In this document: positions 1,166 to 63,046 of the stretch, piece after piece
How positions within the stretch are numbered: position 1 is the stretch's first letter
How the letters are laid out: each line of letters opens with the position of its first letter
From: Haliotis cracherodii
Lineage: Eukaryota
Length of the DNA: 64,000 nt
Assembly (NCBI RefSeq): GCF_022045235.1
Contig: NW_027266274.1
Span: 4,154,001 to 4,218,000 of the forward strand
Direction of reading: 5' to 3'
Made by a program: the position numbers and the translations under genes
The notes under the pieces: model-generated
Seen by the model: the letters and a program-made list of their open reading frames with translations, nothing else
Told to the model about the DNA's origin: nothing
Databases searched by the model: none

Positions 1166-2659
1166 GATAATAAAAACATGTATCATGATAATTCCTGAAA
1201 GAATGAGGGAAGTACATACCTCAACGTACTAAGAGTGTTGAGAGGTGGCCATGTACACCTGTATACCTGACTGAGGTGGTCAGTGAGATATCAACACCCC
1301 TCGTTAACCTGTCGTCTCCCACATGTAGGTCAGTGACAATACACACCGTGCAGCCCAGTGCCGGCACCTGTATTGTCGCTGTCACACAGCAGATGTGAGA
1401 ACAGACTCTCAGTCATAACACAAGTCATGACAATAGGGCAACATTGAATAAACATTCATTACTTCTTAATGTTTGGTATTTCCAATAAAATATAGTCTTA
1501 AGTATAGGTACAAGTTATTGATTTTTAACATGTTTAAAGCATCTTAAGATATAGGAAGACCTTTTCATGATAACTTAATTTAATTCTTTGGAATGTATTT
1601 TACACCTCAGAACTCTAATCCACAATGCCTTCATCATATATACTGGATTCCAAATGGTGACGGTTTATTCTGAGGGAAAGCAAGTTTGCTCGCACACGCC
1701 AGAATATGAGATGGATTTCTCCCCATGTCCGCACACCACAACATTACAGTGTATAAGTATGCTGTATACAGCATTATTTACAGCTCAGCTAGCAAACATG
1801 CAGCCATGGACCTTGCTACAATCACATCATGTTAACTTATGCAAGCATACTAACCTCCAGAGACACCATCCGATGTCCCTACATGGGCTAGACGTCCACC
1901 CTAACCAATTGACGAAGCACTATTTTGGAGACTGTTTGCTCCAAGGAATGAAGTAAAAATCAATATATAGGCGAGAAGGCTTGACATCTAATACAGCCTC
2001 AAGTTGACACAAATGTCACTGAATGCATCTGACATGTGTGTGCTCAATTTCACATCAACATGCTTGTGACCTACATAATATGGACCAAGGCTATCTATAT
2101 TAGTGATATCCATAAACACACTTACAAAGCCTTGTCGCAACATTAATTACAATTAATTATTATTAATTTGTTTCTTTACACAAGTCATTTTTATATTGAT
2201 ATTCTTTTAGGGAAAAGCTAGATACATGTATTACTGAAACATTAATATTTTTATAATTATTTCAGAAGACCTTTAGAGACTTATTTGGTGTATTTGAACA
2301 ATTATCTGATCCTAACAACAGGCTTCTGTTTCAGGACAAATCCTTACCAGACAAATGATACAGAGACATGGCTACATAATGTCTACATAGAGCCCATTAT
2401 ACTTACAAGTCAACATTTACACAATCATTCATGATTTGGGTTGTTTTCCAGACACATCCCTGTATGGCTGGAGTGTATGGCTGGATCCCTGTTTTGTCTC
2501 AGAGCCAAGAAATAGGGTAAGGAATTATCAAAACTGGATTCTAGTTACTGTACTTGCCATAGTTATTGATCTGCTTGTGTAAGCAGCTCTGCAGTATTTG
2601 GACAGAATTAAGCATGTTACATCTCCAATAAATACCTGGCTCTATTTGCCCCTTGAAAC

Positions 2660-3790
2660 ATCCTCTAGCTCTGCTAGACCCTTGGAATACCAACTGGCTT
2701 TTGAAGAACCAAGTACCACCTAGCTCTGCCAGCCCCTTGTAACACCACCTAGCTCTGCCAGCCCCTTGTAACACCACCTAGCTCTGCCAGCCCCTTGTAA
2801 CACCACCTAGCTCTGCCAGCCCCTTGTAACACCAGGTAGCTCTGCCAGCCCCTTGTAACACCACCTAGCTCTGCCAGCCCCTTGTAACACCAGGTAGCTC
2901 TGCCAGCCCCTTGTAACACCAGGTAGCTCTGCCAGCCCCTTGTAACACCACCTAGCTCTGCCAGCCCCTTGTAACACCAGGTAGCTCTGCCAGCCCCTTG
3001 TAACACCAGGTAGCTCTGCCAGCCCCTTGTAACACCAGGTAGCTCTGCCAGCCCCGTGTAACACCAGGTAGCTCTGCCAGCCCCTTGTAACACCAGGTAG
3101 CTCTGACAACCCCTTTTAATACCACCTAGCTCTGCCAGCCCTTTGTAACACCACCTAGCTCTGCCAGCCCCTTGTAACACCACCTAGCTCTGCCAGCCCT
3201 TTGTAACACCAGGTAGCTCTGCCAGCCCCTTTTAATACCACCTAGCTCTGCCAGCCCTTTGTAACACCAGGTAGCTGTGCCAGCCCCTTTTAATACCACC
3301 TAGCTCTGCCAGCCCTTTGTAACACCAGGTAGCTCTGCCAGCCCCTAGTAAAACCACCTAGCTCTGCCAATCCTTTGTAACACCACCTAGCTCTGCCAGC
3401 CCTTTGTAACACCACCTAGCTCTGCCAACCTCTTGTAATACCACATAGCTCTGCCAACCTCTGTAATACCACATAGCTCTGCCAGCCCCTTGTAACACTA
3501 CATAGCTCTGCCAGCCCTTTGTAACACACTGTTAGCTCTGCCAGCCCCTAGTAAAACCATCTAGCTCTGCCAATCCTTTGTAACACCACCTAGCTCTGCC
3601 AGCCCCTTGTAACACCACCTAGCTCTGCCAGCCCTTTGTAACACCACCTAGCTCTGCCAACCTCATGTAATACCACCTAGCTCTGCCAACCTCTGTAATA
3701 CCACCTAGCTCTGCCAGCCCCTTGTAACACTACATAGCTCTGCCTGCCCCTTGTAACACCAGGTAGCTCTGCCAGCCCTTTGTAACAGTT
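2660..3790. repeat. 29-bp minisatellite (ACCACCTAGCTCTGCCAGCCCCTTGTAAC)n, ~37 units
   Basis: Direct tandem periodicity with ACCT/AGGT variants and degenerate edges. Explains the ORFs at 2541-3183. Confidence 0.97.
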
Positions 3791-6377: not shown

Positions 6378-6856
6378 CACTACCCATAAGGTTAGAAATA
6401 ACCAAGTTGATAAAAACCATATATGCACTGGAGCACATGTCACAAGAACCAGTATATTGCTTACGTCATCTGGACGTCATTCTTGACGTCATTTGAAGCT
6501 TATTGTGACTTAGGGCGGAATGACATCACACTAGAAATGATGATTGTCGATGGCACATTCGACAATGGTGTTTTTCTAAGATGGTCAGTGTGATCAATGC
6601 TTTTTTCTAAGGGGTGAGCAGTCAAAAGGATTAAAAACAATGGGTAATAAAGAAATTATTATAATTATTATAATATAATTATAATAAAAACACTTGCATG
6701 ATGTGTAACTCATGTAAGAATTCAAGTATTACCCTTGCTCTTGCTCGGGAAATACAAGATTTCTGACACTTGTTTTATAACATCAGTATGACCAGAGACC
6801 ATCTATTATATGGTGTCTGGTATGATACACATGCTTGTATAATAATCTCTATATAT
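6378..6856 (+). mobile_element. Non-autonomous DNA-type interspersed repeat with subterminal hairpin; second copy inverted at 31441-31795
   Basis: Colinear similarity to the reverse complement of 31441-31795 (TACCCATA.GGTTAGAAATAACC.AGTT ... ATAATAATCTC). Imperfect hairpin at ~6717-6764. Confidence 0.75.
6793..6819. mobile_element. 27-bp palindromic insertion (CAGAGACCAT...ATGGTGTCTG) with 7-bp TSD
   Basis: Flanked by GTATGAC/GTATGAT. The paralogous repeat at ~31469-31475 (minus strand) has a single GTGTGAC, i.e. an empty site. Confidence 0.7.
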
Positions 6857-8805: not shown

Positions 8806-9199
8806 CTGGCACCTAATGACATTCTCATTATTGGCATTAAATTTCCAAGGTAAACATGAATATGGACCTTTTTATTAACATATGATTTTTGCATCATTTC
8901 TGTCCAAAAGCTTTATGAGAGTCTTAAAAAAATGATCTCAATTATAATCATCACCAGCAACAGAAGCTGTGCATAAATTAAACCAATTTCTTGTATTTAG
9001 ATTCTTTTGGGACATGAAAATGTACTTAAGCCTTGTGTACATTTAATCTGTGTGCAGTGTTACACATCTCCAACTGAGGCACAAGAAAGTTTGAGCCCCC
9101 AGATGAAAGTGTTGTTCTCTGTGCACTAGGAAATGATGGAGTCGAGGTTGAAGGAAGGACACTGAGCAATCGATATGAATGTGCTCTGATTGCAGCAGG

Positions 9200-9930
9200 G
9201 AGATGGGGCAGTGATGGGGTCGGCTGGTGGATGGCCAGAATTACGTCACCAGTGGGCAGCAGCAAGATGGGGCAGCGATGGGGTCGGCTGGTGGTAGAGT
9301 TGGTTGACGGCCAGAATTACGTCACCAGTGGGCAGCAGCAGGATGGGGCAGTGAAGGGGTCGGCTGGTGGACAGCCAGAATTACGTCACCAGTGGGCAGC
9401 AGCAAGATGGGGCAGCGATGGGGTCGGCTGGTGGTAGAGTTGGTTGACGGCCAGAATTACGTCACCAGTGGGCAGCAGCAGGATGGGGCAGTGAAGGGGT
9501 CGGCTTGTGGACGGCCAGAATTACGTCACCAGTGGGCAGCAAGATGGGGCAGCGATGGGGTCGGCTGGTGGACGGACAGAATTACGTCACCAGTGGGCAG
9601 CAGCAAGATGGGGCAGCGATGGGGTCGGCTGGTGGACGGACAGAATTACGTCACCAGTGAGCAGCAGCAAGATGGGGCAGCGATGGGGTCGGCTGGTGGT
9701 AGAGTTGGTGGACGGACAGAATTACGTCACCAGTGGGCAGCAGCAAGATGGGGCAGCGATGGGGTCGGCTGGTGGACGGCCAGAATTACGTCACCAGTGG
9801 GCAGCAGCAAGATGGGGCAGCGATGGGGTCGGCTGGTGGACGGCCAGAATTACGTCACCAGTGGGCAGCAGCAAGATGGGGCAGTACAGTTCCTGTGATG
9901 TAGTTGGGGCAGTGATGGGGTCGGCTGGCA
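9200..9930. repeat. G-rich 64/76-bp minisatellite, 10 core units
   Basis: AGAATTACGTCACCAGTGGGCAGCAGCAAGATGGGGCAGCGATGGGGTCGGCTGGTGG repeated, with an optional 12-bp insert. Confidence 0.96.
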
Positions 9931-10399
9931 GTCTTCTACATTCATAGACATGAGATAGGAAACCATTTTTGCCAAGATCTCAGATAGGAAAACGTACTGA
10001 GTGACATGTGAAATAGGACAGCTAAAAGGTTGAGATATGTAACAAAACAATTTATTGGGTGATTGAAAGAAAACTTTATTGATAAAATATACATGAAGTA
10101 AAGGATCAAGGTAGATAAAAGGTTGAAGAGTACAGAATCCTATGAATAAGGATGGTCTCCAACATTCCCACGTAGGGAATTAGTAAGACAAGGAATGTGG
10201 GATTGTTAAAAGAAAAAAATAAGATTTCAGTCTACTTACAAATCTGACAATGACTATGCTTGTTACTAATTTCACAAAATGTTTTTTTCTAAAATGTAAG
10301 ACAAGGGAATTAGTCAGAAATGTCCCCATATTTCCTTACATGACCAGTAACATGTATCAAATGTCAAATAATAAAATAAGAGCCAGCACTAGCTCCCGT

Positions 10400-11072
10400 G
10401 TATATAATCAGCTCCCAGCAACCATCAGCTCCTGTCTACAATCAGCTCCCAGCCACAATCAGCTCCTGTCTACAATCTACTCCCTGTCTACAATCAGCTC
10501 CCTGTCTACAATCTACTCCCTGTCTACAATCAGCTCCCTGTCTATAATCTACTCCCTGTCTACAATCAGCTCCCTGTCTACAATCAGCTCCTGTCTACAA
10601 TCAGCTCCCTGTCTACAAACTACTCCCTGTCTACAATCAGCTCCCTGTCTACAATCTACTCCCTGTCTACAATCAGCTCCCAGCCACAATCAGCTCCTGT
10701 CTACAATCAGCTCCTGTCTTCAATCAGCTCCTTTCCACAATCAGCTCCTGTCTACAATCAGCTCCTGTCACCAGTCAGCTCCTGTCACCAGTCAGCTCCT
10801 GTCTACAATCATCTCCTGTCTACAATCTACTCCCTGTCTACAATCAGCTCTCTGTCTACAATCATCTCCTTCCCACAGTTCCTGTCTACAGTCAGCTCCT
10901 ATCTACAATCTACTCCCTGCCACAATCAGCTCCTGTCCACAATCAGCTCCTGTCTACAATCAGCTCCTGTCTACAATCAGCTCCCAGCCACAATCAGCTC
11001 CTGTCTACAATCAGCTCCCGTCACCAGTCAGCTCCTGTCACCAGTCAGCTTCTGTCACCAGTCAGCTCCTGT
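10400..11072. repeat. 17-18-bp degenerate tandem repeat (CTACAATCAGCTCC(C)TGT)n
   Basis: Direct periodicity. Explains the 358-aa low-complexity ORF. Confidence 0.95.
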
Positions 11073-14000
11073 CCTACCCTATGGCCACCTGGATCATGTT
11101 GTGGCTGGCATCACTTAGTAACACATTAGAAACCTTTCCAGATGCTTGCAATAAATCCAGACCTTCTGAACTGATTAAATTAAGAGGCCAGTTCTCCACT
11201 GATAAAAGCACTTCAGCTGTGTTTGCATTCCATTTCTGGGTAATAACCAGCAATTATCATCCTTATCTCCTGTATCCTGCTGTCCTGCTGATCTGTAGAA
11301 TGTTTTCTGACATATTTGTATTCTAGCTGAAAGAATTTCTGTGAAACTACCCTAAAACAAGTCATAAATATTGTTGATCTATAGCAAAGACTCATTGGCT
11401 TTCCTTAGACATGTTAAAAAGTATTCCTACTAAAGTCTTGAAACAAACTCCTCAAATCACATCACATCAAAACACAGCAACTGAGAAGTTTCAACTTGAT
11501 ATCAAATCATTTCAAAATATGTGTTTCAACCACAAATATGTAACTTAGTGAGTATACCAATTGATTGGATTGAAGTTGCTCCCGTGAGTATTTTCATTAG
11601 AACAATTGCTGAACAAAACTGTCATAGAAAAAAAGAAACATGATTTCCATCTATCTGAATATGTTTGAAAAACATAATGAGAGCTGTTTTGTTTCCAATA
11701 TGTTTAATGCTGATGATTTAAGGAGATGCAGTCGCTGCCTGACTCAGCGAGGTGCAGCCATCTTGGCGGACGACCAGCATTCTTTGTACGTGATACAGGA
11801 TAAAACTCCTTATCACCTCATCGGTGCTTTGCTGCATGGAATCAGCCATTGCAACATCAGCACAAACGTAAACGATTATCTTAAAAATATAAACATTTCC
11901 CTTTTGGACGTAGAGATCTGATAGTCACAACAGAAAATATATCTTTGTTTATCAAAATATGTGTAAACTGGTATATATAATAAGTAAGATGAAAATAACA
12001 CGATGAAGACCTCTGACATATTCACATTTATGACATTTTGGGGGAATATAGGATAGATTTTTAATTAATAGTAATGCAGGATGAAGCATGATTTTGTGCA
12101 TGTGTCACATTTCACACAAGACACATATTTATAAATCCTAGTAAATCTTCCCCATGTACACCGCAGTTTAACAAGGATGCAGGTCTCAAAACACAGCCAG
12201 ATGTTGCTTTCATTAGCATCAGTTTGTCCTGTCACAGTTGAAGAAGTGTTCTCAGGCTGCAGGAGTGTCGGCTCCACTTTCCAGCCAGGAGATCCAAAGG
12301 CGGTAACACGATACTGGCACCATTTGGTTGTGGACTTGTATGAAAACATTCCGTAAAAACATACTGTAAGCCATTCAAGAGTTGAGACAGGTTCTAACAA
12401 AGTTGTCTTGTCAAAGCAATATAATTTACAAACATGTCAACAATATGTTCCTTCTTTTTTAGATTGCCATATGAAGTATTTTGATAGGATAGGAATTACA
12501 CAGACTGTCATTTGTTTGAAATACAACCAACATTCTCATCCTATTAGAAATAGCCACATGTAGTGTTTTGATTGGTTAGAAATTCAATGAATTGGTTTGA
12601 TCAGGATCGTTTTTTGTTTGAAACCCAACCCATCCCATTTAACACTGGTTACAAACCACTATTTTAACATGTCCTGAACCTTTGAACGAGGTCAGCCCAA
12701 CATTTGTGTTTCAAGTAGTGGTGCTGTTACATCCCACATGCTCGTGATAACAGTTTCATATGACCTGTAACAAAGACCGAGATGGTGAGGTGATGATACA
12801 CTTCTCACATGACATCTGCATTTTTGCATGTCTATGAAAGTCATCTCTAATCTTTTACTTCCCATTCAGATAACAATAACTGGATACACTTCCTGGTGTA
12901 ACGATTACCAAACAAAGGTTCCAACATTAAATGTTCCAGGTTAAATATATTCTTACGTAAGAGATATAACTATTTTGTAGTGTATGTAAGTTTGTCAGAA
13001 TTTCCAAAATAATATTATCATAAAGGGGGACAATTCAGCTATGGATTGACACATTCCAGTCATCTGTAACACGTTTCAGACAAAATTCATAAATCATGAA
13101 CCATTTACATGTTCTTCACTTGAAAAAACCCAACAGTTATAAATTTTTAAAAGTACTTCAAATACATCTTACAACACCAACACAAGACCATCAGCCACTT
13201 GAATATGGCCGCCATCACACCTGTCCACAATGACTCAGCGCTGCTGGAGCTAATGCAGCGTGACAGAAACAGTCTTTACTGTGACTGTCATTGATTTGTG
13301 TGTTTCTATTACACCAACTGTCTTTAATAACAACTCAGTCATATGGTTTACACTCTGTAATGTGCAGCCATACATGTCGTTTATCAGGTGTGATTGGCTT
13401 GACAATACTATCAGAGAGAGAAAAAACGTGTTAGATGCAAATACAAAATGCCTGACAATGTACTTGATTTCTTTCAGTTGTTTGTTTGAAATGCTAATGT
13501 GTTATGATAACATGTTTTGCTATCTTTACAATTTGAAAATGTCCTGAATTTCCTGTTATGTTTTTATCCATAGGCTAAAAAAATAATAGGTCTTGGTTCT
13601 CAGGCACTGCCTACATCATCATAAAGTTCGCCGCAAAAACCACTGTCCGCCCGCACTATATATAAAAAAACATAGCCTGAGAACCAAATCTTTTATTTTT
13701 CTAAGCCATGGCTGCTACATCTTATTACAGACATATTGCTGGTTAATACGTGATATAGACGTTGGTGTCACTGGGGTGTGTTGTGTGTTTTATTATATGA
13801 AATCAGCTCCAGCTATGCACCAGGAAGATATGCACAACAGTAACAGGGCTCACAGCCTGGCTGGGGGAATGTGGTCACAGGGGAGAAACACTGCTATTGT
13901 TTACATGGGTGAATGTTTTCATGCTACTTGTCAGCTGGAAGATCCTGCTGGAGTGTTAAACAATGCCATTAGCAGAGGAGAGTCATTAATTATGTCAAAA

Positions 14001-14075
14001 CACAGCTCTACACAACTATATCATGGTTCAAACACAGATCATTCATACTCATTGTGGTGGAAGGGTGGGTTGGGC

Positions 14076-16870
14076 CATGTGGTGTGTGGTGTACAGTATT
14101 CTTGTAAAGGGGACAGTACTGCCATCTGGTGTACAGTATTCCTGTACAGGGGACAGTACTGCCATGTGGTGTGTGGTGGACAGTATTCCAGTACAGGGGA
14201 CAGTACTGCCATGTGGTGTGTGGTGTACAGTATTCCTGTACAAGGGACAGTACTGCCATGTGGTGTACAGTATTCCTGTACAGGGGACAGTACTGCCATG
14301 TGGTGTACAGTATTCCTGTACAGGGGACAGTACTGCCATGTGGTGTACAGTATTCCTGTACAGGGGACAGTACTGTCATGTGGTGTACAGTATTCCTGTA
14401 CAGGGAACAGTACTGCCATGTGGTGTACAGTATTCCTGTACAGGGGACAGTACTGCCATGTGGTGTGTGGTGTACAGTATTCCTGTACAAGGGACAGTAC
14501 TGCCATCTGGTGTACAGTATTCCTGTACAGGGGACAGTACTGCCATGTGGTGTACAGTATTCCTGTACAGGGGACAGTACTGTCATGTGGTGTACAGTAT
14601 TCCTGTACAGGGGACAGTACTGCCATGTGGTGTACAGTATTCCTGTACAGGGGACAGTACTGCCATGTGGTGTACAGTATTCCTGTACAGGGGACAGTAC
14701 TGCCATGTGGTGTACAGTATTCCTGTACAGGGGACAGTACTGCCATGTGGTGTACAGTATTCCTGTACAGGGGACAGTACTGTCATGTGGTGTACAGTAT
14801 TCCTGTACAGGGAACAGTACTGCCATGTGGTGTACAGTATTCCTGTACAGGGGACAGTACTGCCATGTGGTGTGTGGTGTACAGTATTCCTGTACAAGGG
14901 ACAGTACTGCCATGTGGTGTACAGTATTCCTGTACAGGGAACAGTACTGCCATGTGGTGTACAGTATTCCTGTACAGGGGACAGTACTGTCATGTGGTGT
15001 ACAGTATTCCTGTACAGGGGACAGTACTGTCATGTGGTGTACAGTATTCCTGTACAGGGGACAGTACTGCCATGTGGTGTACAGTATTCCTGTACAGGGG
15101 ACAGTACTGCCATGTGGTGTACAGTATTCCTGTACAGGGGACAGTACTGCCATGTGGTGTACAGTATTCCTGTACAGGGGACAGTACTGCCATGTGGTGT
15201 ACAGTATTCCTGTACAGGGGACAGTACTGTCATGTGGTGTACAGTATTCCTGTACAGGGAACAGTACTGCCATGTGGTGTACAGTATTCCTGTACAGGGG
15301 ACAGTACTGCCATGTGGTGTGTGGTGTACAGTATTCCTGTACAGGGGACAGTACTGCCATGTGGTGTACAGTATTCCTGTACAGGGGACAGTACTGCCAT
15401 GTGGTGTACAGTATTCCTGTACAGGGGACAGTACTGTCATGTGGTGTACAGTATTCCTGTACAGGGGACAGTACTGCCATGTGGTGTACAGTATTCCTGT
15501 ACAGGGGACAGTACTGCCATGTGGTGTGTGGTGTACAGTATTCCTGTACAAGGGACAGTACTGCCATGTGGTGTACAGTATTCCTGTACAGGGAACAGTA
15601 CTGCCATGTGGTGTACAGTATTCCTGTACAGGGGACAGTACTGCCATGTGGTGTACAGTATTCCTGTACAGGGGACAGTACTGCCATCTGGTGTACAGTA
15701 TTCTTGTACAGGGGACAGTACTGCCATGTGGTGTACAGTATTCCTGTACAGGGGACAGTACTGCCATGTGGTGTGTGGTGTACAGTATTCATGTACAGGG
15801 GACAGTACTGCCATGTGGTGTACAGTATTCTTGTAAAGGGGACAGTACTGCCATCTGGTGTACAGTATTCCTGTACAGGGGACAGTACTGCCATGTGGTG
15901 TGTGGTGTACAGTATTCCTGTACAGGGGACAGTACTGCCATGTGGTGTACAGTATTCCTGTACAGGGGACAGTACTGCCATGTGGTGTACAGTATTCCTG
16001 TACAGGGGACAGTACTGCCATGTGGTGTACAGTATTCCTGTACAGGCGACAGTACTGCCATGTGGTGTGTGGTGTACAGTATTCCTGTACAGGGGACAGT
16101 ACTGCCATGTGGTGTACAGTATTCCTGTACAGGGGACAGTACTGCCATGTGGTGTACAGTATTCCTGTACAGGGGACAGTACTGCCATGTAGTGTACAGT
16201 ATTCCTGTACAGGCGACAGTACTGCCATGTGGTGTACAGTATTCTTCTACAGGGGACAGTACTGCCATGTGGTGTACAGTATTCCTGTACATGCGACAGT
16301 ACTGCCATGTGGTGTGTGGTGTACAGTATTCCTGTACAGGGGACAGTACTGCCATGTGGTGTACAGTATTCCAGTACAGGGGACAGTACTGCCATGTGGT
16401 GTACAGTATTCCAGTACAGGGGACAGTACTGCCATGTGGTGTACAGTATTCCTGTACAGTACTGCCATCTGGTGTACAGTATTCCTGTACAGTACTGCCA
16501 TCTGGTGTACAGTATTCCTGTACAGGGGACAGTACTGCCATGTGGTGTACAGTATTCCTGTACAGGGGACAGTACTGTCATGTGGTGTACAGTATTCCTG
16601 TACAGTACTGCCATCTGGTGTACAGTATTCCTGTACAGTACTGCCATCTGGTGTACAGTATTCCTGTACAGGGGACAGTACTGCCATGTGGTGTACAGTA
16701 TTCCTGTACAGGGGACAGTACTGCCATGTGGTGTACAGTATTCCTGTACAGTACTGCCATCTGGTGTACAGTATTCCTGTACAGGGGACAGTACTGCCAT
16801 GTGGTGTACAGTATTCCTGTACAGGGGACAGTACTGTCATGTGGTGTACAGTATTCTTGTACAGGGGAAC
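14076..16870. repeat. 40-bp minisatellite (GTGGTGTACAGTATTCCTGTACAGGGGACAGTACTGCCAT)n, ~2.8 kb
   Basis: Highly homogeneous units with +7-bp (GTGGTGT) variants and shortened variants near the right end. Source of all the 200-950 aa ORFs here. Confidence 0.99.
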
Positions 16871-17959
16871 ATCTGTTTATAAGTAGGCAAACCTAGTCAA
16901 TTGGGGGAACAATACTCAACCAATTAGGATATTTCTGTTTGTAACCAAGCTGATGAGAACATGATGTTATTTCCGTTCCCTTTGAAAGATAGCCTTCTAT
17001 GGCTGATGGATTAGAGCCATTGTGCATTTCTTTTTCATTATATCATTTTTCAGAGACCACTGTGAATCCAGTCTTATGGGATGTACTGATTGATAACTAC
17101 ATGTTTTACTGTTTGTGTTTTGATGCAGAACATGCATATCACTTGTGGTCGATCTGTGACCCAGAGGACAACCCAGGTTTCGGAGTGATGTCATAATGAC
17201 AAAACACTGCAGACACACTCAATGGAACACCAGACAAAACCAATGGCAAGGTCACATTCAAAATGAGACAGCATTCTCTGCGGAGTTAATTACTGGTGAC
17301 ATTGCTCTGAGGGCATACAGCGTGAGTGAGTGAGAGGGTTGGGGGATGTTTGTGAGGGCAGGGGGAGGCGGGGGGGAATGAGGATATAGGAAGACAGCAG
17401 CGGTTACTTTTACAATATCTTAAAAAAACAAAACTGTCACATGTACTCAGATTGAATCACTGTGTCACAGACATCTTGTTTCGAACACAAACTCACAAAA
17501 TATACACAATAAAAAAATAACTCTGTTACATAAACTGGACAACAGAAACAAATCTGGATCCACACACAATATCAGAGCCAAAACAAAATGATCATAATCC
17601 CATACTTTAACACAGACTCACAACAGCCATAGCTTTACCTTTGTTAGAGCAATGGCTTGGACATCATTCATAATAAGTCCTTGGGCTTGCAGGACACAAG
17701 GACAAGTTTATTATCTCAATATAAATTGAGTTCTCATTAAACAAATTGTGTTATATATCTTGTTTATCTTGCAAAATGTTGAAGTCACAATGACATCTGA
17801 ATGGTAACAAGACATATGCCAAGTAGGACAGGCGTAGCTGGCCAGGGCAGTCGTCACACCACCCGTGACCACCCGTAACGACCAGACACAACATCTATTA
17901 GATGTTATCAACTACCAGCAAGTTGTTCCATGATGTTCAAAGATACTTTCAAAACCAGT

Positions 17960-31440: not shown

Positions 31441-31795
31441 GGAGATTATTATGCAAAAAAGCATTTGTGTCACACTTATTATACGAAACGAGTGTCAGTG
31501 TAAAAAATTCTTTATTTCCCATTATTTCTTAATCCTTTGGTGCTCCCCCTTAGAAAAATGAATGACAGTCGCCATAAAAAAACACTAATCTCAAATGACA
31601 TCAACAATTTTTCAGCTATGACATTGTTTCAAGTGTGACGTCATTCACACCATCCGTCACAATAAGATTTGAATGATGTCAACAATGGCGTTTGGGTGAC
31701 GTAAACAATATTTCCCGATACACGTGAAGAGATATTTGCCCTAGTGCACATGAGATATTTATGAACTCGGTTATTTCTAACCCTATGGGTAATAA
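31441..31795 (-). mobile_element. Second copy of the 6378-6856 repeat, with the hairpin region deleted
   Basis: Colinear reverse-complement similarity to 6378-6856. Confidence 0.75.
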
Positions 31796-32984: not shown

Positions 32985-33713
32985 TTTAATCATCATCATC
33001 ATCATCCTTAACAGTCCTATTCCTCCTCCCCCTCATCATCATCAGTCCTTGTCCTCCTCCTCCTTATCAGTCCTCCTCCTCCTCATTGTCATCATCAGTC
33101 CTAGTCCTCCTCCTAATCAGTCCTAGTCCTCCTCCTCTTCCTTGTCAGTCCTCCTCCTCCTCATCGTCATCATCAGTCCTAGTCCTTCTCCCCCTCAGTC
33201 CTAGTCCTCTTCCTTATCAGTCCTAGTCCTCCTCATCATCATCAGTCCTAGTCCTCCTCCTCTTCCTTGTCAGTCCTAGTCCTCTTCATCATCAGTCCTA
33301 GTCCTACTCCTCATCAGTCCTAGTCCTCCTCCTCATCAGTCCTAGTCCTCCTCCTCATCAGTCCTAGTCCTCCTCCTCCTCAGTCCTAGTCCTCCTCCTT
33401 ATCAGTCCTAGTCCTCCTCATCATCATCAGTCCTAGTCCTCCTCCTCTTCCTTGTCAGTCCTAGTCCTCCTCATCATCAGTCCTAGTCCTACTCCTCATC
33501 AGTCCTAGTCCTCCTCCTCATCAGTCCTAGTCCTCCTCCTCCTCAGTCCTAGTCCTCCTCCTCCTCAGTCCTAGTCCTCCTCCTTATCAGTCCTAGTCCT
33601 CCTCCTCAGTCCTAGTCCTCCTCATCAGTCCTAGTCCTCCTCTTCCTCATCATCAGTCCTAGTCCTCCTCCTCATCATCATCATCAGTCTTAGTCCTCCT
33701 CATCATCATCAGT
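32985..33713. repeat. Compound pyrimidine-rich repeat [CAGTCCTAG(TCC)n(TCA)m]n
   Basis: Direct periodicity with variable trinucleotide runs. The acidic minus-strand frame is interrupted by TAG in each unit. Confidence 0.95.
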
Positions 33714-50242: not shown

Positions 50243-52162
50243 ATGGCGCCTAAAGGAAAAGCTCCCGCCATTGGCATAGACCTGGGAACCACCTACTCTT
50301 GTGTTGGTGTGTTCCAGAATGGAAAGGTGGAGATTATCGCCAACGACCAGGGCAACAGAACCACCCCCAGCTACGTGGCCTTCACTGACACTGAGCGTCT
50401 ACTCGGGGATGCCGCTAAAAACCAGGTGTCGCTGAACCCACAGAACACTGTGTTTGACGCCAAGAGACTGATCGGCAGACAATTTGAGGACAGCACTGTC
50501 CAAAACGACATGAAACACTGGCCGTTCCGCGTTGTCAACAGTTCAGGCAGTAAGCCCAAACTACAGGTGGAGTACAAGGGAGAAAAGAAGACGTTTGCAC
50601 CCGAGGAAATCAGCTCCATGGTGCTGAGCAAGATGAAGGAGACAGCTGAGGCGTACCTTGGACAGCAGGTGACTGATGCAGTGATAACAGTGCCTGCATA
50701 CTTCAACGACTCTCAGAGACAGGCGACCAAGGATGCGGGGGCCATTGCAGGGCTGAAAGTATTGAGAATCATCAACGAGCCTACTGCAGCTGCCCTGGCC
50801 TATGGTCTGGACAAGAACTTGAAGGGGGAGAGGAATGTGCTCATATTTGATTTGGGAGGTGGCACATTTGACGTGTCTGTGCTGACCATAGACGAGGGCT
50901 CCGTGTTTGAGGTGAGGTCAACTGCGGGGGATACTCATCTGGGAGGGGAGGACTTTGACAACCGAATGGTGGACCATTTCCTCCAGGAGTTCAAGAGGAA
51001 GTTCAGGAAGGACATCAGCAATAACGCACGTGCCATGAGACGTCTGCGCACTGCATGTGAACGTGCCAAGAGAACTCTGTCCAGTAGCACAGAGGCTGGT
51101 ATAGAAATTGACTCCCTGCATGAGGGAGTGGACTTTTACTCCAAAATCAGCAGGGCACGATTTGAGGAGCTGTGTTCCGATCTGTTCCGCTCAACTTTGG
51201 AGCCAGTGGAGAAAGCTCTGAGAGATGCTAAACTGGACAAGTCTCGTATCCACGATGTGGTGTTGGTGGGAGGTTCCACACGAATCCCCAAGATTCAGAA
51301 GCTGCTGCAGAATTTCATGAATGGCAAAGATCTGAACAAGTCCATCAACCCCGATGAAGCTGTGGCTTACGGAGCTGCAGTGCAGGCTGCCGTGCTGAGT
51401 GGGGACACGAGCGACGCCATCAAGGATGTTCTGCTGGTGGACGTTGCTCCGCTGTCCTTGGGTATCGAGACTGCTGGAGGTGTGATGACCAAGTTGATTG
51501 ATTGGAACACAAGAATCCCCACCAAGGCAAACCAGACCTTCACAACCTACTCCGACAACCAGCCAGGTGTCAGCATCCAGGTGTTTGAAGGGGAGAGGGG
51601 TCTCACGAAAGACAACAACATTCTGGGCAAGTTTGAGCTCACAGGTATTCCCCCAGCCCCCAGAGGTGTGCCTCAGATTGAAGTGACATTTGACATTGAT
51701 GCTAATGGCATCCTGAATGTGTCTGCAGTTGACAAGAGCACTGGCAAGTCCAACAACGTCACCATCAGTAATGACAAAGGTCGTCTGAGCAAGGCCGACA
51801 TTGATAGAATGGTGTCTGAAGCTGAGAAGTACAAGGAAGAGGATGAGAAACACAAGGAGAGAATCGCTGCCAGGAACCACCTGGAGAACTACGTGTTCAG
51901 TGTGAGGGCCAGTGTGGACGAGATGGGCAGCAAGATGGAGGATGTGGACAAGCAGACAATAAGCAAAGCTTGTGAGGAGACGCTGCAGTGGCTGGACAAG
52001 AACTCCCTGGCGGAGAAGGAGGAGTTTGAGCAGCAGTACAAGCAGCTTGAGAGGCTCTGCTGCCCAGTCATGTCCAAACTCCACAGTCAGGGAGGTCCGC
52101 AGCAGGAGGGCGGGGCCAGCAGGGGGCCCAGTAGGGGGCCCAGTGTGGAGGAGATGGACTAG
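50243..52162 (+). CDS. hsp70: Inducible-type Hsp70, copy 2 (639 aa; chimeric; R421W)
   Basis: Intact ORF nearly identical to copies 1 and 3. Confidence 0.97.
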
Positions 52163-53866: not shown

Positions 53867-56080
53867 TGTTTGAGCTAGAATCAAGGAGGACCAAGTTACT
53901 GCTGAAAATAGAGTGCTTGATTGTCGGACTGCTGCTGTGACCTGGCTGGTTTGATTCATATTTACAGGCTGGTGAAATCTTGTCATTTGCCAAGAAAATG
54001 TGGCTACGTTTTATACAAACTACATCAATCTAAGAAATACTAACTGTTAATTACTGTGAAGGGCAAACACCTAAAAATGATACCAGCCTTCCCTGACAGA
54101 GGTTGATGCACGAACAAGTTGCTGTAGAAACATGAATATCATGCACTTTGAACAGATTTAGCAGTCATCTTTTCTGAAACAAATAACCAAAGAAACATTT
54201 TCATTTGGACCTGAGCTAATTTGATAGCAAAACCTCGGTATAGCAACGAATGAAAACATAGTTTGGTCTTAATGCAGTCTGCGAGAAAATGCTGTAGTAA
54301 AGTGAAGACCGTCAAAGTCAAAGGTACAGTGCTCGTGTGGTCAAAGGGAGATAATCCATAAGGAAATGCGATGCCAAAGGTTTGTCACTTAAAGAATACA
54401 ATTAGGGAAAATAGCTAAGCGCCAGCAGTTCTTTTTTTCTATGTCAGAAATTTCCATGGATCTTTTTGAAACACCGACGTAAGACGTCGATCTCATTTTG
54501 ATGAATGTCTAAGAGTGAGTGAGTGAGTGAGTACAAGTTACAGTCATTGAATGTCCATGACGCGACCGATTCTGGGTCGCATCGTATATGATTCAAAGAT
54601 GAGTGCTGAGTGCGGTGTTGAACAACAAACAAACAAACTTGTTCAGTCCACTCTCCACCAACACAGCCGATGCATGGGGACTTATGAATGGTGTGTACAA
54701 TGTAATGACTTCACGTCATACTGTTGCTGTCATTTACACCTTATGTTCTGGTACGATGTTTTAGTTGCTTTCTGATAAACTCGTCTCATCCCCATCCGTA
54801 TTATATGTAGATATACACATTAAGCAGGACAATGTTCAGATCACTTGTTGGAACGAGAAACCAAGTTAGCGTTGCACGTGCGAAATTACGAGCCGGTCTT
54901 GCACGTGTGCACCATGATTTGAGATGCGTTCAATTCGCTTGCTGGCACTTTCGGAAACACCTTCACACCTTTATTTCTTCTTATTTCACATTTTCCAATG
55001 TTTCTGTTTATAAGTGAGATACATCAGGACAGGATACATCATCACTTCTCACAGTTTGTGCCACAGGATTTTCCTCATGGATTGTTTGTACGATTTATGA
55101 CTTTTGGCAAAACACAAAGGACGACACGATATGAAAAGTTGACTTCTTATTTATATCCTTATTTGACACCCATATATTTGTTTTGAGATGCCAGCAGTGA
55201 GTAGTTCAATCTGCTAGAAATTTCACTCAGAAGGGTATAGGNNNNNNNNNNNNNNNNNNNNNNNNNNNNNNNNNNNNNNNNNNNNNNNNNNNNNNNNNNN
55301 NNNNNNNNNNNNNNNNNNNNNNNNNNNNNNNNNNNNNNNNNNNNNNNNNNNNNNNNNNNNNNNNNNNNNNNNNNNNNNNNNNNNNNAGGGTCATCCCAAA
55401 ATATGATATATGACAGTCTCTTGTGGAGGGTCATAAACAAATCATACACAGATTAGGGGAGGGCCGTGGGAAGAAAATGGACATTTTATGTTAAATAGAC
55501 AGTGCTTGTGACTTTGGGAGGCTCGTGATAAACAATGTACAAGGATACGAGGAGATTCATCTAAAAATATGACAAGCATTAGCCACAGACCATAAAATAC
55601 ATTAATTTTTATAGTCTCTGCATAAGGGGAGGGTAATTATTTTAATTATGTTACACAGTTGTTATATTCACACCCTGGCTTACCCCACAAATCATATGTC
55701 ATTGAATCACATATGTATTCACCAAAAACACACCGAAAAAGAGAACGATAGAGCATTTTACACGAACACAAAGCACTAATCAAAACTGATGTAGTTTACC
55801 AAAACAATTCTGTATATATGTTTCCAAACAGTCAGTCTTTTTTAAAGAACATATAATAAGGCTGTAGAATACGTTCGCCACCTTGATGTCATCCCAAATA
55901 GGGAATATTTTGGTGGGGACAGACCAAATCGGTAAATAATATGGTCTTTGGTAGGGAGAATATAAACATTGCATAGATTGATGTATATTTAATATAGTTA
56001 GAGGGTGGAGAGCGGATTCTACACTCGCACCCGATTTCCTCAGTTCCTAAGTCGCACAAGATAAGTGAGACCGTGACATC

Positions 56081-56445: not shown

Positions 56446-58353
56446 ATGGCGCCTAAAGGAAAAGCTCCCGCCATTGGCATAGACCTGGGAACCACCTACT
56501 CTTGTGTTGGTGTGTTCCAGAATGGAAAGGTGGAGATTATCGCCAACGACCAGGGCAACAGAACCACCCCCAGCTACGTGGCCTTCACTGACACTGAGCG
56601 TCTACTCGGGGATGCCGCTAAAAACCAGGTGTCGCTGAACCCACAGAACACTGTGTTTGACGCCAAGAGACTGATCGGCAGACAATTTGAGGACAGCACT
56701 GTCCAAAACGACATGAAACACTGGCCGTTCCGCGTTGTCAACAGTTCAGGCAGTAAGCCCAAACTACAGGTGGAGTACAAGGGAGAAAAGAAGACGTTTG
56801 CACCCGAGGAAATCAGCTCCATGGTGCTGAGCAAGATGAAGGAGACAGCTGAGGCGTACCTTGGACAGCAGGTGACTGATGCAGTGATAACAGTGCCTGC
56901 ATACTTCAACGACTCTCAGAGACAGGCGACCAAGGATGCGGGGGCCATTGCAGGGCTGAAAGTATTGAGAATCATCAACGAGCCTACTGCAGCTGCCCTG
57001 GCCTATGGTCTGGACAAGAACTTGAAGGGGGAGAGGAATGTGCTCATATTTGATTTGGGAGGTGGCACATTTGACGTGTCTGTGCTGACCATAGACGAGG
57101 GCTCCGTGTTTGAGGTGAGGTCAACTGCGGGGGATACTCATCTGGGAGGGGAGGACTTTGACAACCGAATGGTGGACCATTTCCTCCAGGAGTTCAAGAG
57201 GAAGTTCAGGAAGGACATCAGCAATAACGCACGTGCCATGAGACGTCTGCGCACTGCATGTGAACGTGCCAAGAGAACTCTGTCCAGTAGCACAGAGGCT
57301 GGTATAGAAATTGACTCCCTGCATGAGGGAGTGGACTTTTACTCCAAAATCAGCAGGGCACGATTTGAGGAGCTGTGTTCCGATCTGTTCCGCTCAACTT
57401 TGGAGCCAGTGGAGAAAGCTCTGAGAGATGCTAAACTGGACAAGTCTCGTATCCACGATGTGGTGTTGGTGGGAGGTTCCACACGAATCCCCAAGATTCA
57501 GAAGCTGCTGCAGAATTTCATGAATGGCAAAGATCTGAACAAGTCCATCAACCCCGATGAAGCTGTGGCTTACGGAGCTGCAGTGCAGGCTGCCGTGCTG
57601 AGTGGGGACACGAGCGACGCCATCAAGGATGTTCTGCTGGTGGACGTTGCTCCGCTGTCCTTGGGTATCGAGACTGCTGGAGGTGTGATGACCAAGTTGA
57701 TTGACAGGAACACAAGAATCCCCACCAAGGCAAACCAGACCTTCACAACCTACTCCGACAACCAGCCAGGTGTCAGCATCCAGGTGTTTGAAGGGGAGAG
57801 GGCTCTCACAAAAGACAACAACATTCTGGGCAAGTTTGAGCTCACAGGTATTCCCCCAGCCCCCAGAGGTGTGCCTCAGATTGAAGTGACATTTGACATT
57901 GATGCTAATGGCATCCTAAATGTGTCTGCAGTTGACAAGAGCACTGGCAAGTCCAACAACGTCACCATCAGTAATGACAAAGGTCGTCTGAGCAAAGCCG
58001 ACATTGATAGAATGGTGTCTGAAGCTGAGAAGTACAAGGAAGAGGATGAGAAACACAAGGAGAGAATCGCTGCCAGGAACCACCTGGAGAACTACGTGTT
58101 CAGTGTGAGGGCCAGTGTGGACGAGATGGGCAGCAAGATGGAGGATGTGGACAAGCAGACAATAAGCAAAGCTTGTGAGGAGACGCTGCAGTGGCTGGAC
58201 AAGAACTCCCTGGCGGAGAAGGAGGAGTTTGAGCAGCAGTACAAGCAGCTGGAGAAACTCTGCTGCCCAGTCATGTCCAAACTCCACAGTCAGGGAGGTC
58301 CGCAGCAGCAGGGCGGGGCCGGCAGGGGGCCCAGTGTGGAGGAGATGGACTAG
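56446..58353 (+). CDS. hsp70: Inducible-type Hsp70, copy 3 (635 aa)
   Basis: Intact ORF. Lacks the 12-bp C-terminal duplication and has canonical GERA and IDRN. Confidence 0.98.
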
Positions 58354-60804: not shown

Positions 60805-63046
60805 TGTTTGAGCTAGAATCAAGGAGGACCAAGTTACTGCTGAAAATAGAGTGCTTGATTGTCGGACTGCTGCTGTGACCTGGCTGGTTTGATTCATATT
60901 TACAGGCTGGTGAAATCTTGTCATTTGCCAAGAAAATGTGGCTACGTTTTATACAAACTACATCAATCTAAGAAATACTAACTGTTAATTACTGTGAAGG
61001 GCAAACACCTAAAAATGATACCAGCCTTCCCTGACAGAGGTTGATGCACGAACAAGTTGCTGTAGAAACATGAATATCATGCACTTTGAACAGATTTAGC
61101 AGTCATCTTTTCTGAAACAAATAACCAAAGAAACATTTTCATTTGGACCTGAGCTAATTTGATAGCAAAACCTCGGTATAGCAACGAATGAAAACATAGT
61201 TTGGTCTTAATGCAGTCTGCGAGAAAATGCTGTAGTAAAGTGAAGACCGTCAAAGTCAAAGGTACAGTGCTCGTGTGGTCAAAGGGAGATAATCCATAAG
61301 GAAATGCGATGCCAAAGGTTTGTCACTTAAAGAATACAATTAGGGAAAATAGCTAAGCGCCAGCAATTCTTTTTTTCTATGTCAGAAATTTCCATGGATC
61401 TTTTTGAAACACCGACGTAAGACGTCGATCTCATTTTGATGAATGTCTAAGAGTGAGTGAGTGAGTGAGTACAAGTTACAGTCATTGAATGTCCATGACG
61501 CGACCGATTCTGGGTCGCATCGTATATGATTCAAAGATGAGTGCTGAGTGCGGTGTTGAACAACAAACAAACAAACTTGTTCAGTCCACTCTCCACCAAC
61601 ACAGCCGATGCATGGGGACTTATGAATGGTGTGTACAATGTAATGACTTCACGTCATACTGTTGCTGTCATTTACACCTTATGTTCTGGTACGATGTTTT
61701 AGTTGCTTTCTGATAAACTCGTCTCATCCCCATCCGTATTATATGTAGATATACACATTAAGCAGGACAATGTTCAGATCACTTGTTGGAACGAGAAACC
61801 AAGTTAGTGTTGCACGTGCGAAATTACGAGCCGGTCTTGCACGTGTGCACCATGATTTGAGATGCGTTCAATTCACCTTCACACTTTTATTTCTTCTTAT
61901 TTCACATTTTCCAATGTTTCTGTTTATAAGTGAGATACATCAGGACAGGACACATCATCACTTCTCACAGTTTGTGCCACAGGATTTTGCTCATGTATTG
62001 TTTGCTGTTGATAAAAATACAAATTGAACAAATCCTACGATTTATAACTTTTGGCAAAACACAAAGGACGACACGATATGAAAAGTTGACTTCTTACTTA
62101 TATCCTTATTTNNNNNNNNNNNNNNNNNNNNNNNNNNNNNNNNNNNNNNNNNNNNNNNNNNNNNNNNNNNNNNNNNNNNNNNNNNNNNNNNNNNNNNNNN
62201 NNNNNNNNNNNNNNNNNNNNNNNNNNNNNNNNNNNNNNNNNNNNNNNNNNNNNNNNNNNNNNNNNNNNNNNNNNNNNNNNNNNNNNNNNNNNNNNNNNNN
62301 NNNNNNNNNNNNNNNNNNNNNNNNNNNNNNNNNNNNNNNNGGAGTCAGGGTAGGGTCATCCCAAAATATGACATGTGACAGTCTCTTGTGGAGGGTCATA
62401 AACAAATCATACACAGATTAGGGGAGGGCCGTGGGAAGAAAATGGACATTTTATGTTAAATAGACAGTGCTTGTGACTTTGGGAGGCTCGTGATAAACAA
62501 TGTACAAGGATACGAGGAGATTCATCTAAAAATATGACAAGCATTAGTCACAGACCATAAAATACATTAATTGTTATAGTCTCTGCATAAGGGGAGGGTA
62601 ATTATTTTAATTATGTTACACAGTTGTTATATTCACACCCTGGCTTACCCCACAAATTATATGTCATTGAATCACATCTGCATTCACCAAAAACACACCG
62701 AAAAAGAGAACGATAGAGCATTTTACACGAACACAAAGCACTAATCAAAACTGATGTAGTTTACCAAAACAATTCTGAATATATGTTTCGAAACAGTCAG
62801 TCATTTTTTAAAGAACATATATTTAGGCTGTAGAATACGTTCGCCACCTTGATGTCATCCCAAATAGGGAATATTTTGGTGGGAACAGACCAAATCGGTA
62901 TATAATATGGTCTTTGTTAGGGAGAATATAAACATTGCATAGATTGATGTATATTTAATATAGTTAGAGGGTGGAGAGTGGATTCTACACTCGCACCCGA
63001 TTTTCTCAGTTCCTAAGTCGCACAAGATAAGTGACACCGTGACATC

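Follow-up and report, generated by a model that had tools for sequence, protein, structure and literature searches.

The window analysed here, a 64,000-nucleotide stretch of the Haliotis cracherodii genome (contig NW_027266274.1, positions 4,154,001 to 4,218,000), contains near-palindromes of 27–37 bp that are each enclosed by a short direct repeat, and the question it raises is what process left them there. The initial annotation listed eight of these palindromes with their flanks and read them as scars of an abundant P-like transposon family. We find that they are very probably donor-site excision scars of P-superfamily transposons, lying between the two copies of a 7-bp target duplication. 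The original reading is supported on each of its three sides, as the palindromes greatly outnumber control matches, 7-bp duplications flank them across the genome, and their parent elements belong to the P superfamily.

Palindromes in the window

A sequence check confirms all eight palindromes and their flanks. Four of the sites are independent, as had been proposed, and the extra copies came with the hsp70 unit. The sites, together with one empty site, are as follows.

6786..6826, unstranded: family A scar; palindrome of 27 bp at 6793-6819, with the 7-bp duplication at 6786-6792 and 6820-6826.
31469..31475, minus strand: empty site with one target 7-mer; the repeat around the 6793 scar is present here as a diverged copy.
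43468..43509, unstranded: older family A-type scar; 28 bp at 43475-43502, duplication 6/7.
49374..49424, unstranded: older scar with A-like ends; 37 bp at 49381-49417, duplication 5/7, in a dispersed repeat.
49710..49754, unstranded: degenerate scar resembling family B, the family being assigned by eye; 31 bp at 49717-49747, duplication 6/7.
55577..55627, unstranded: copy of the 49381 scar, from tandem duplication of the hsp70 unit.
55913..55957, unstranded: copy of the 49717 scar, from tandem duplication of the hsp70 unit.
62542..62592, unstranded: third copy of the 49381 scar, in the hsp70 spacer copy.
62879..62923, unstranded: third copy of the 49717 scar; flanks 4/7.

The 6793 palindrome consists of an 18-nt arm and a 10-nt arm with one base common to both and one substitution, and its form is among the three commonest scars of the sample described below. 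No exact parent family was found for the 49381 scar, and 49717 is the weakest of the four independent sites. A loose scan of the window gives 6 matches compared with 2.15 in simulated sequence, which is not significant; the score classes of sites 6793 and 49381 occur 0 times in 300 simulated windows, and that of site 49717 occurs 0.017 times per simulated window. Site 43475 falls outside the loose scan because two bases are lost from one arm, but it alone in the window matches the core pattern exactly (none in 100 shuffles).

Genome-wide abundance, target duplication and empty sites

The 1.18-Gb genome contains 859 exact matches to the pattern CAGAGACCATA-N3-20-TATGGTCTCTG, compared with 0 for the reversed pattern that served as control, which bears out the expectation that such sites would be abundant genome-wide. 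The flank duplication is 7 bp long, as first deduced from the window, being exact in 10 of the 15 loci fetched and at least 6/7 in 13 of them. In site samples of families A, C and B (see below), selected without use of the flanks, it is exact at 30/44, 39/44 and 11/18 sites respectively, and lengths of 4–6 and 8–10 bp give only 0–1 exact instances in the same samples. The consensus of 86 exact sites is T-N-N-[G-T-N-W-N-A-C]-N-N-A, with T at -3 and A at +3.

The empty site that had been recognised at 31469-31475 is genuine and lies on the minus strand, but the copy containing it is just ~70% identical. As stronger evidence, all 34 bases (27 + 7) of site 6793 are absent from 29/29 paralogous repeat copies fetched from 58 matches to the repeat, each of which has a single 7-mer. 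At site 49381, contigs of the dispersed repeat in 4/4 public runs pass from ~49379 to ~49424, skipping ~44 bases (37 + 7). Elsewhere in the genome, a family C scar is present in 7/30 copies of its host repeat and missing from 23/30. No empty copies of sites 43475 and 49717 were seen. The locus L194, a paralogue of L188, has the target 7-mer twice with 4 bases between; 7 copies have a 32-bp scar and 22 are without it. The 4-base form would be either a second repair product or a later deletion.

Parent elements

The bases that follow the 17-nt arm (654 matches, examined among 100 listed) form two populations, namely arms that close a palindrome and a 30-bp terminal repeat, CAGAGACCATATAATAGA-GGGACGGCCCTC, which is the end of family A. 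Eleven non-coding copies of 2.1–2.8 kb with paired 30-bp ends represent a non-autonomous form of this family; the 7-bp duplication is exact in 9/11, one of the others having 8 bp and one being degenerate. The search proposed in the initial annotation, for long elements that share these ends and encode a P-type transposase, succeeds: a Pfam search of the genome for P-type transposases gives 16 matches, one of them within the 8,167-bp element listed first below, and the parents are four related families (A–D) of 6–8 kb P-superfamily elements with ~30-bp terminal repeats, represented by the following copies.

G000:C67:15675547-15683713, 8,167 bp: autonomous family A element with an exact 7-bp duplication and the same ends as the A scars.
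L082-L085, 7,319 bp: family C element in four copies that are >99% identical, with an exact 7-bp duplication in 4/4.
Family D element, 7,140 bp: autonomous copy with an exact 7-bp duplication.
Family B: broken copies of 6.2 and 2.6 kb, and 12 exact ends.

Scar arms of the other families are similarly in excess of control, with 377 vs 0 matches for B, 199 vs 2 for C and 356 vs 50 for D, counts that leave out matches with C as the last pattern base. In family B the surviving ends are far rarer than the scars (12 exact ends vs 377 arm matches).

Several features of these elements and their scars were noted in passing. The two ends of family C differ at nt 8 and 10, and these variants are exchanged relative to the interior in 2/4 of the near-identical copies (L082-L085); mixed arms are also found in a few family C scars. 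The exchange would fit an excised element being re-joined or gap-repaired in reverse orientation. The autonomous A element contains a 35-bp scar of its own kind with a 7-bp duplication (L086:8307-8341; also in L061, L087, L094, L341 and L342). Short tandem arrays incorporate B scars in units of ~47 bp at G000:C5:37206450-37207654, and D scars in units of ~35 bp at G000:C7:36371541-36372137.

Arm lengths and junctions

Arm lengths were counted in the first matches listed, which come from a few contigs. The family A sample consists of listed rows 1–30 and 40 rows fetched by place, with intact ends and second-strand duplicates dropped and 7 later scar rows left out; that of family C consists of 30 + 40 rows among 100 listed, parsed in the same way. 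An arm was taken as closed where the flanks match at 5/7 or more.

Family A arms that include nt 17 continue to nt 18 in 46/55 cases, and from nt 18 to nt 19 in 2/46. The corresponding steps in family C are 34/63 from nt 16 to 17, 10/34 from 17 to 18 and 0/10 from 18 to 19, and the 17-to-18 step separates the two families with a Fisher p of 3.6e-7. The opposite arm, on which there was no selection, is 18 nt long in 8/52 A scars vs 0/57 C scars (p 0.002), and joins of 18+18 are present in A and of 17+17 in C. For family B, 0/12 closed arms reaching nt 17 go on into the parent's G in the first 30 matches listed; by eye, this G is present in 3/100 matches listed, none of which continues beyond it. 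In family D, also scored by eye, 0/32 closed 17-nt arms continue, and the cap is less sure because the parent's nt 18 base is present in 5/7 open 17-nt rows, intact ends excluded. The cap is thus 18 nt in A, 17 nt in B and C and likely 17 nt in D, and the ~16 bp of terminal repeat that each scar had been expected to retain is replaced by a family-specific length of 17 or 18 nt. An 18-nt tail ending in T was considered for family B and dropped, as the parent end has G at nt 18. A few arms exceed the cap (21+21, 19 and 20 in A; 25 in C), and for these gap repair or chance must be invoked.

A scar draws on both ends of the element and does not arise by one arm being copied back on itself, since 35 of 42 informative C scars have one arm of each end type and only 1 has two of the same kind. 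One-sided copies also occur in families A, B and C; one side has an arm of 14–19 nt, and the opposite side extends over 47 bp to several kb.

The cap is followed directly, in A, B and C, by a 5-mer that matches nt 3–7 of the end apart from wobble-compatible differences; this inner 5-mer is GGGAC from nt 19 in A, GGGAC from nt 18 in B and TGGAT from nt 18 in C. In family D one of the two ends carries it at nt 18, the prediction for D from the inner 5-mer having been set down before D scars were searched.

Proposed mechanism and its rivals

We predict that the palindromes form in a manner similar to that described for the Drosophila P element. Excision by the fly P transposase is reported to leave the donor with 3' tails of 17 nt, and donor repair to proceed through microhomology, blunt or short-insertion joins between the two target copies, or through partial gap repair and then joining (PMC2895639 Table 1; PMC10983969). 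By analogy, the abalone enzymes would cut one strand at the tip of the element and the other strand 17 nt inside it in families B, C and probably D, or 18 nt inside it in family A. The 3' tails left on the chromosome would then be trimmed, and joined either bluntly, via microhomology of 1–3 bases or with a short AT-rich fill-in. The palindrome would represent the outer 17–18 bases or less of both transposon ends, left behind after the element is cut out, and the one-sided copies may derive from aborted gap repair. Insertion into an empty site with duplication of 7 bp, arms identical to the parent ends, the sharp cap and the P-type transposase of the parents are direct observations. We infer excision itself, because the pairs of copies found all set an empty site against a scar, and none sets the full element against a scar at one locus. 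The scars are read as excision products because their junction classes are those of the fly, the commonest are microhomology joins, and 75 of the 116 sites are unique.

Two rival explanations dispense with excision, and both are very improbable. The less probable is that the palindromes are minimal MITEs of 25–40 bp mobilised by a P-type transposase, an option that the initial annotation had left beside that of scars. Each palindrome does pair two inverted ends with a clean 7-bp duplication, and some sequences occur in identical form at unrelated loci, at up to 6 of the 116 sites; however, there is no homogeneous family, as these sites (23–51 bp in length) comprise 87 distinct sequences. The four most frequent forms are those that microhomology of 1–2 bases between the tails should produce, the inner half of the terminal repeat, to which the fly HTH domain binds (PMC7776569), is absent from all but a few, and a scar that recurs with its own flanks sits inside another repeat. 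Of that pair of options the scars stand and the MITEs are disfavoured. Only slightly more credible is an internal deletion, independent of transposase, through slippage or hairpin deletion between the two 30-bp terminal repeats. One perfect palindrome of 42 bp (21+21) is compatible with loss at a short inverted repeat located within the end, and there are copies with internal deletions of many sizes, but such a process gives no cause for arms to stop at nt 17/18 of a 30-bp repeat, nor for the one-base difference between families, and the one-sided copies likewise stop at 14–19 nt. The cap already largely refutes it. A hAT-type origin is rejected because the parent transposase is P-type.

An unlikely, if less remote, alternative accepts excision and has all families cut at 17 nt, with A seeming to have 18 via an untemplated A or an A borrowed from the other arm. 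Consistent with this, nt 18 of family A is A, the inner arm ends are AT-rich and many junctions admit both readings. Yet the 46/55 is far above the rate of any single base after nt 17 in C; family A has 18-nt arms on both sides (18+18, 18+2+18), with opposite arms of 18 nt in 8/52 and of 17 nt in 1; and C has 17+17 joins with no 18+18 among the matches listed. Under excision with family-specific cuts, the scar lengths likely record the depth at which each family's enzyme cuts.

A more speculative step concerns the placement of the inner cut, which may be set just before the 5-mer repeating nt 3–7, with the extra base of family A in a looped-out stretch. The transferred strand of the fly structure forms a loop, with nt -14 to -18 disordered, then doubles back and pairs with the 5' part of the non-transferred strand, and how the P enzyme makes its 17-nt staggered cut is described as unresolved in the same review (PMC7776569). 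The position of the caps suggests that the inner cut could be set by sequence and not by distance from the tip; if the nick is placed by the inner motif, A would cut at 18 because its loop is one base longer. We infer this rule from families that are related, and in A, B and D pairing is possible in further registers.

The transposase

The 881-aa open frame of family A contains PF21787, PF21788 and PF21789, all above cut-off, and its product is 98% identical to an uncharacterised protein of Haliotis rufescens. PF21788 is the GTP-binding insertion domain, and GTP would be a putative cofactor. The predicted fold of the transposase matches the fly P transposase (Foldseek E 2e-20); residues 366-872 of the model align to 6p5a chain A 128-567 (VIA Z 34.9, 434 residues, rmsd 4.2), and 6p5a is the only match in a PDB sequence search. 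D483, D584, E836 and D623-x2-H626 are kept in at least 90% of 30 aligned proteins.

The THAP domain (PF05485) is absent from the gene model (903 aa) of the relative with 98% identity and from three other full-length homologues, from 21 upstream frames of families A and C, and from the precomputed domains of 60/60 homologues. The introns are deduced from the gene model and from a first coding exon that is kept in A, C and D and agrees with the relative's gene model. The N-terminal 350 residues contain four conserved cysteines in addition to a basic patch and a DHxY motif, and within the whole-protein model they give weak UBC/RWD-like fold matches (Z ~6). In exon 1 (L086:2782-2916) the basic patch precedes the DHxY-like motif in families A, C and D; we take this motif to resemble the HCF-1-binding motif of THAP proteins. 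More distant P-type transposases are present at L092 and L095, with a different N-terminus and a large neighbour on the opposite strand that ends in a PHD finger, and L095 has a possible pair of element ends.

A second gene and a predicted C-terminal domain

The transposase ends ~66 residues past the catalytic Glu, and 32/35 homologues end 62-71 residues past it, the other 3 being without the search motif. All four families have a second gene, convergent with that of the transposase, which encodes a helical protein with a C2H2-like finger. The model of this protein (pLDDT 89) matches 6p5a chain B over 118/118 residues with Z 11.2 and rmsd 2.4; this is the top row of 48,161, with the next at Z 7.1, and the Z of 11.2 is below the level that the tool treats as safe for helical folds. 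Comparison with the P C-terminal domain gives a Foldseek probability of 0.98 but an E of 0.49, and PF12596 has weak matches in 9/124 relatives of the second protein. These relatives form 2,681 clusters (E <=0.001), the best 150 being 143-493 aa long. We predict from the models that the second gene carries a counterpart of the P C-terminal domain, split from the transposase. An ESM Atlas search with the second protein gave no usable lead, its 7-row alignment had no match among PDB sequences, and a complex prediction for the transposase core and the second protein, run without alignments and with an uncertain partner fold, scored 0.00, a value that speaks neither for nor against a complex. A 2026 preprint (10.64898/2026.08.31.747927) states that the fly enzyme works without its C-terminal domain.

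Relationship to known P elements

The parents are placed in the P superfamily because of their core, ends and duplication, and do not belong to the P, 1360 or Galileo families as these are delimited in PMC3698922. The transposase resembles P transposase (6P5A/6PE2) and THAP9 in its HTH, RNase H domain with DDE residues and GTP-binding insertion domain; it is unlike them in being without THAP, and in that the C-terminal domain match is on a second convergent gene and not fused. The initial annotation had looked towards a THAP/P-type enzyme and a likeness to Galileo/1360; this is refined, in that the enzyme is P-type but the parents are neither Galileo nor 1360, being without THAP and having introns, short ends and two genes. 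Galileo and 1360/Hoppel do share the 7-bp duplication (PMC4168063, PMC3698922), and the palindromic GT..AC target is GTANTAC in Galileo (PMC4168063) and G-T-N-W-N-A-C here. Both are described as intronless in PMC3698922, whereas gene models and conserved first exons give the parents here introns. A THAP domain and long foldback ends further set Galileo apart (PMC3688188) from these THAP-less, two-gene elements with their ~30-bp ends.

The donor products of the Drosophila melanogaster P element are already known from experiments, and resemble the abalone scars in having the target duplication on both sides with up to ~17 nt of each end (PMC2895639 and PMC7776569), and in their microhomology, blunt and short-insertion joins and one-sided products of aborted gap repair (PMC2895639). 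Unlike them, the abalone scars are natural and genome-resident, occur by the thousand and derive from four families in one genome; the duplication is 7 bp here and 8 bp in the fly, and the cap is 18 nt in one family. The literature outside Repbase and most subscription journals, in its accessible parts, yielded no report of natural genome-wide P scars or of two-gene P elements. The present analysis ties scars to identified parents in four families, and adds the two-end test and the inner-motif rule. Ordinary repeat annotation would miss sequences as short as these scars, which nonetheless keep a record of former insertion sites. Natural scars allow the cut depth of untested families to be read directly off a genome and hint at a rule, open to testing, for the position of the inner nick, and they are linked to a parent with a split, THAP-less transposase of which near-identical intact copies exist. 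On balance we lean towards a broader picture, held with much less assurance than excision itself, of a THAP-less two-gene P lineage with its C-terminal domain as a separate protein, whose thousands of scars read out cleavage family by family; the nick would lie at a conserved 5-mer able to pair again with the transferred strand as this loops back, and a one-base insertion in the loop would turn a 17-nt stagger into one of 18.

Surroundings of the scars in the window

At least four intronless hsp70 genes lie in tandem in the window (44015-45934, 50243-52162, 56446-58353 and 63394 to its end), in array units of ~6.2-7 kb, with a minisatellite of 30-bp period after the first, second and third genes. 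Of the four independent scars, three (43475, 49381 and 49717) are 315–645 bp upstream of a TATA-like box of an hsp70 promoter, a post hoc observation on two promoters only; the 43475 scar is 364 bp upstream of the first such box and the 49717 scar 315 bp upstream of the second. Heat-shock promoters are favoured by fly P elements, according to PMC1592238. No tRNA genes were found in the window. Unrelated minisatellite arrays occupy 2634-3787, 9192-9885, 10391-11074, 14074-16871 and 32987-33713.
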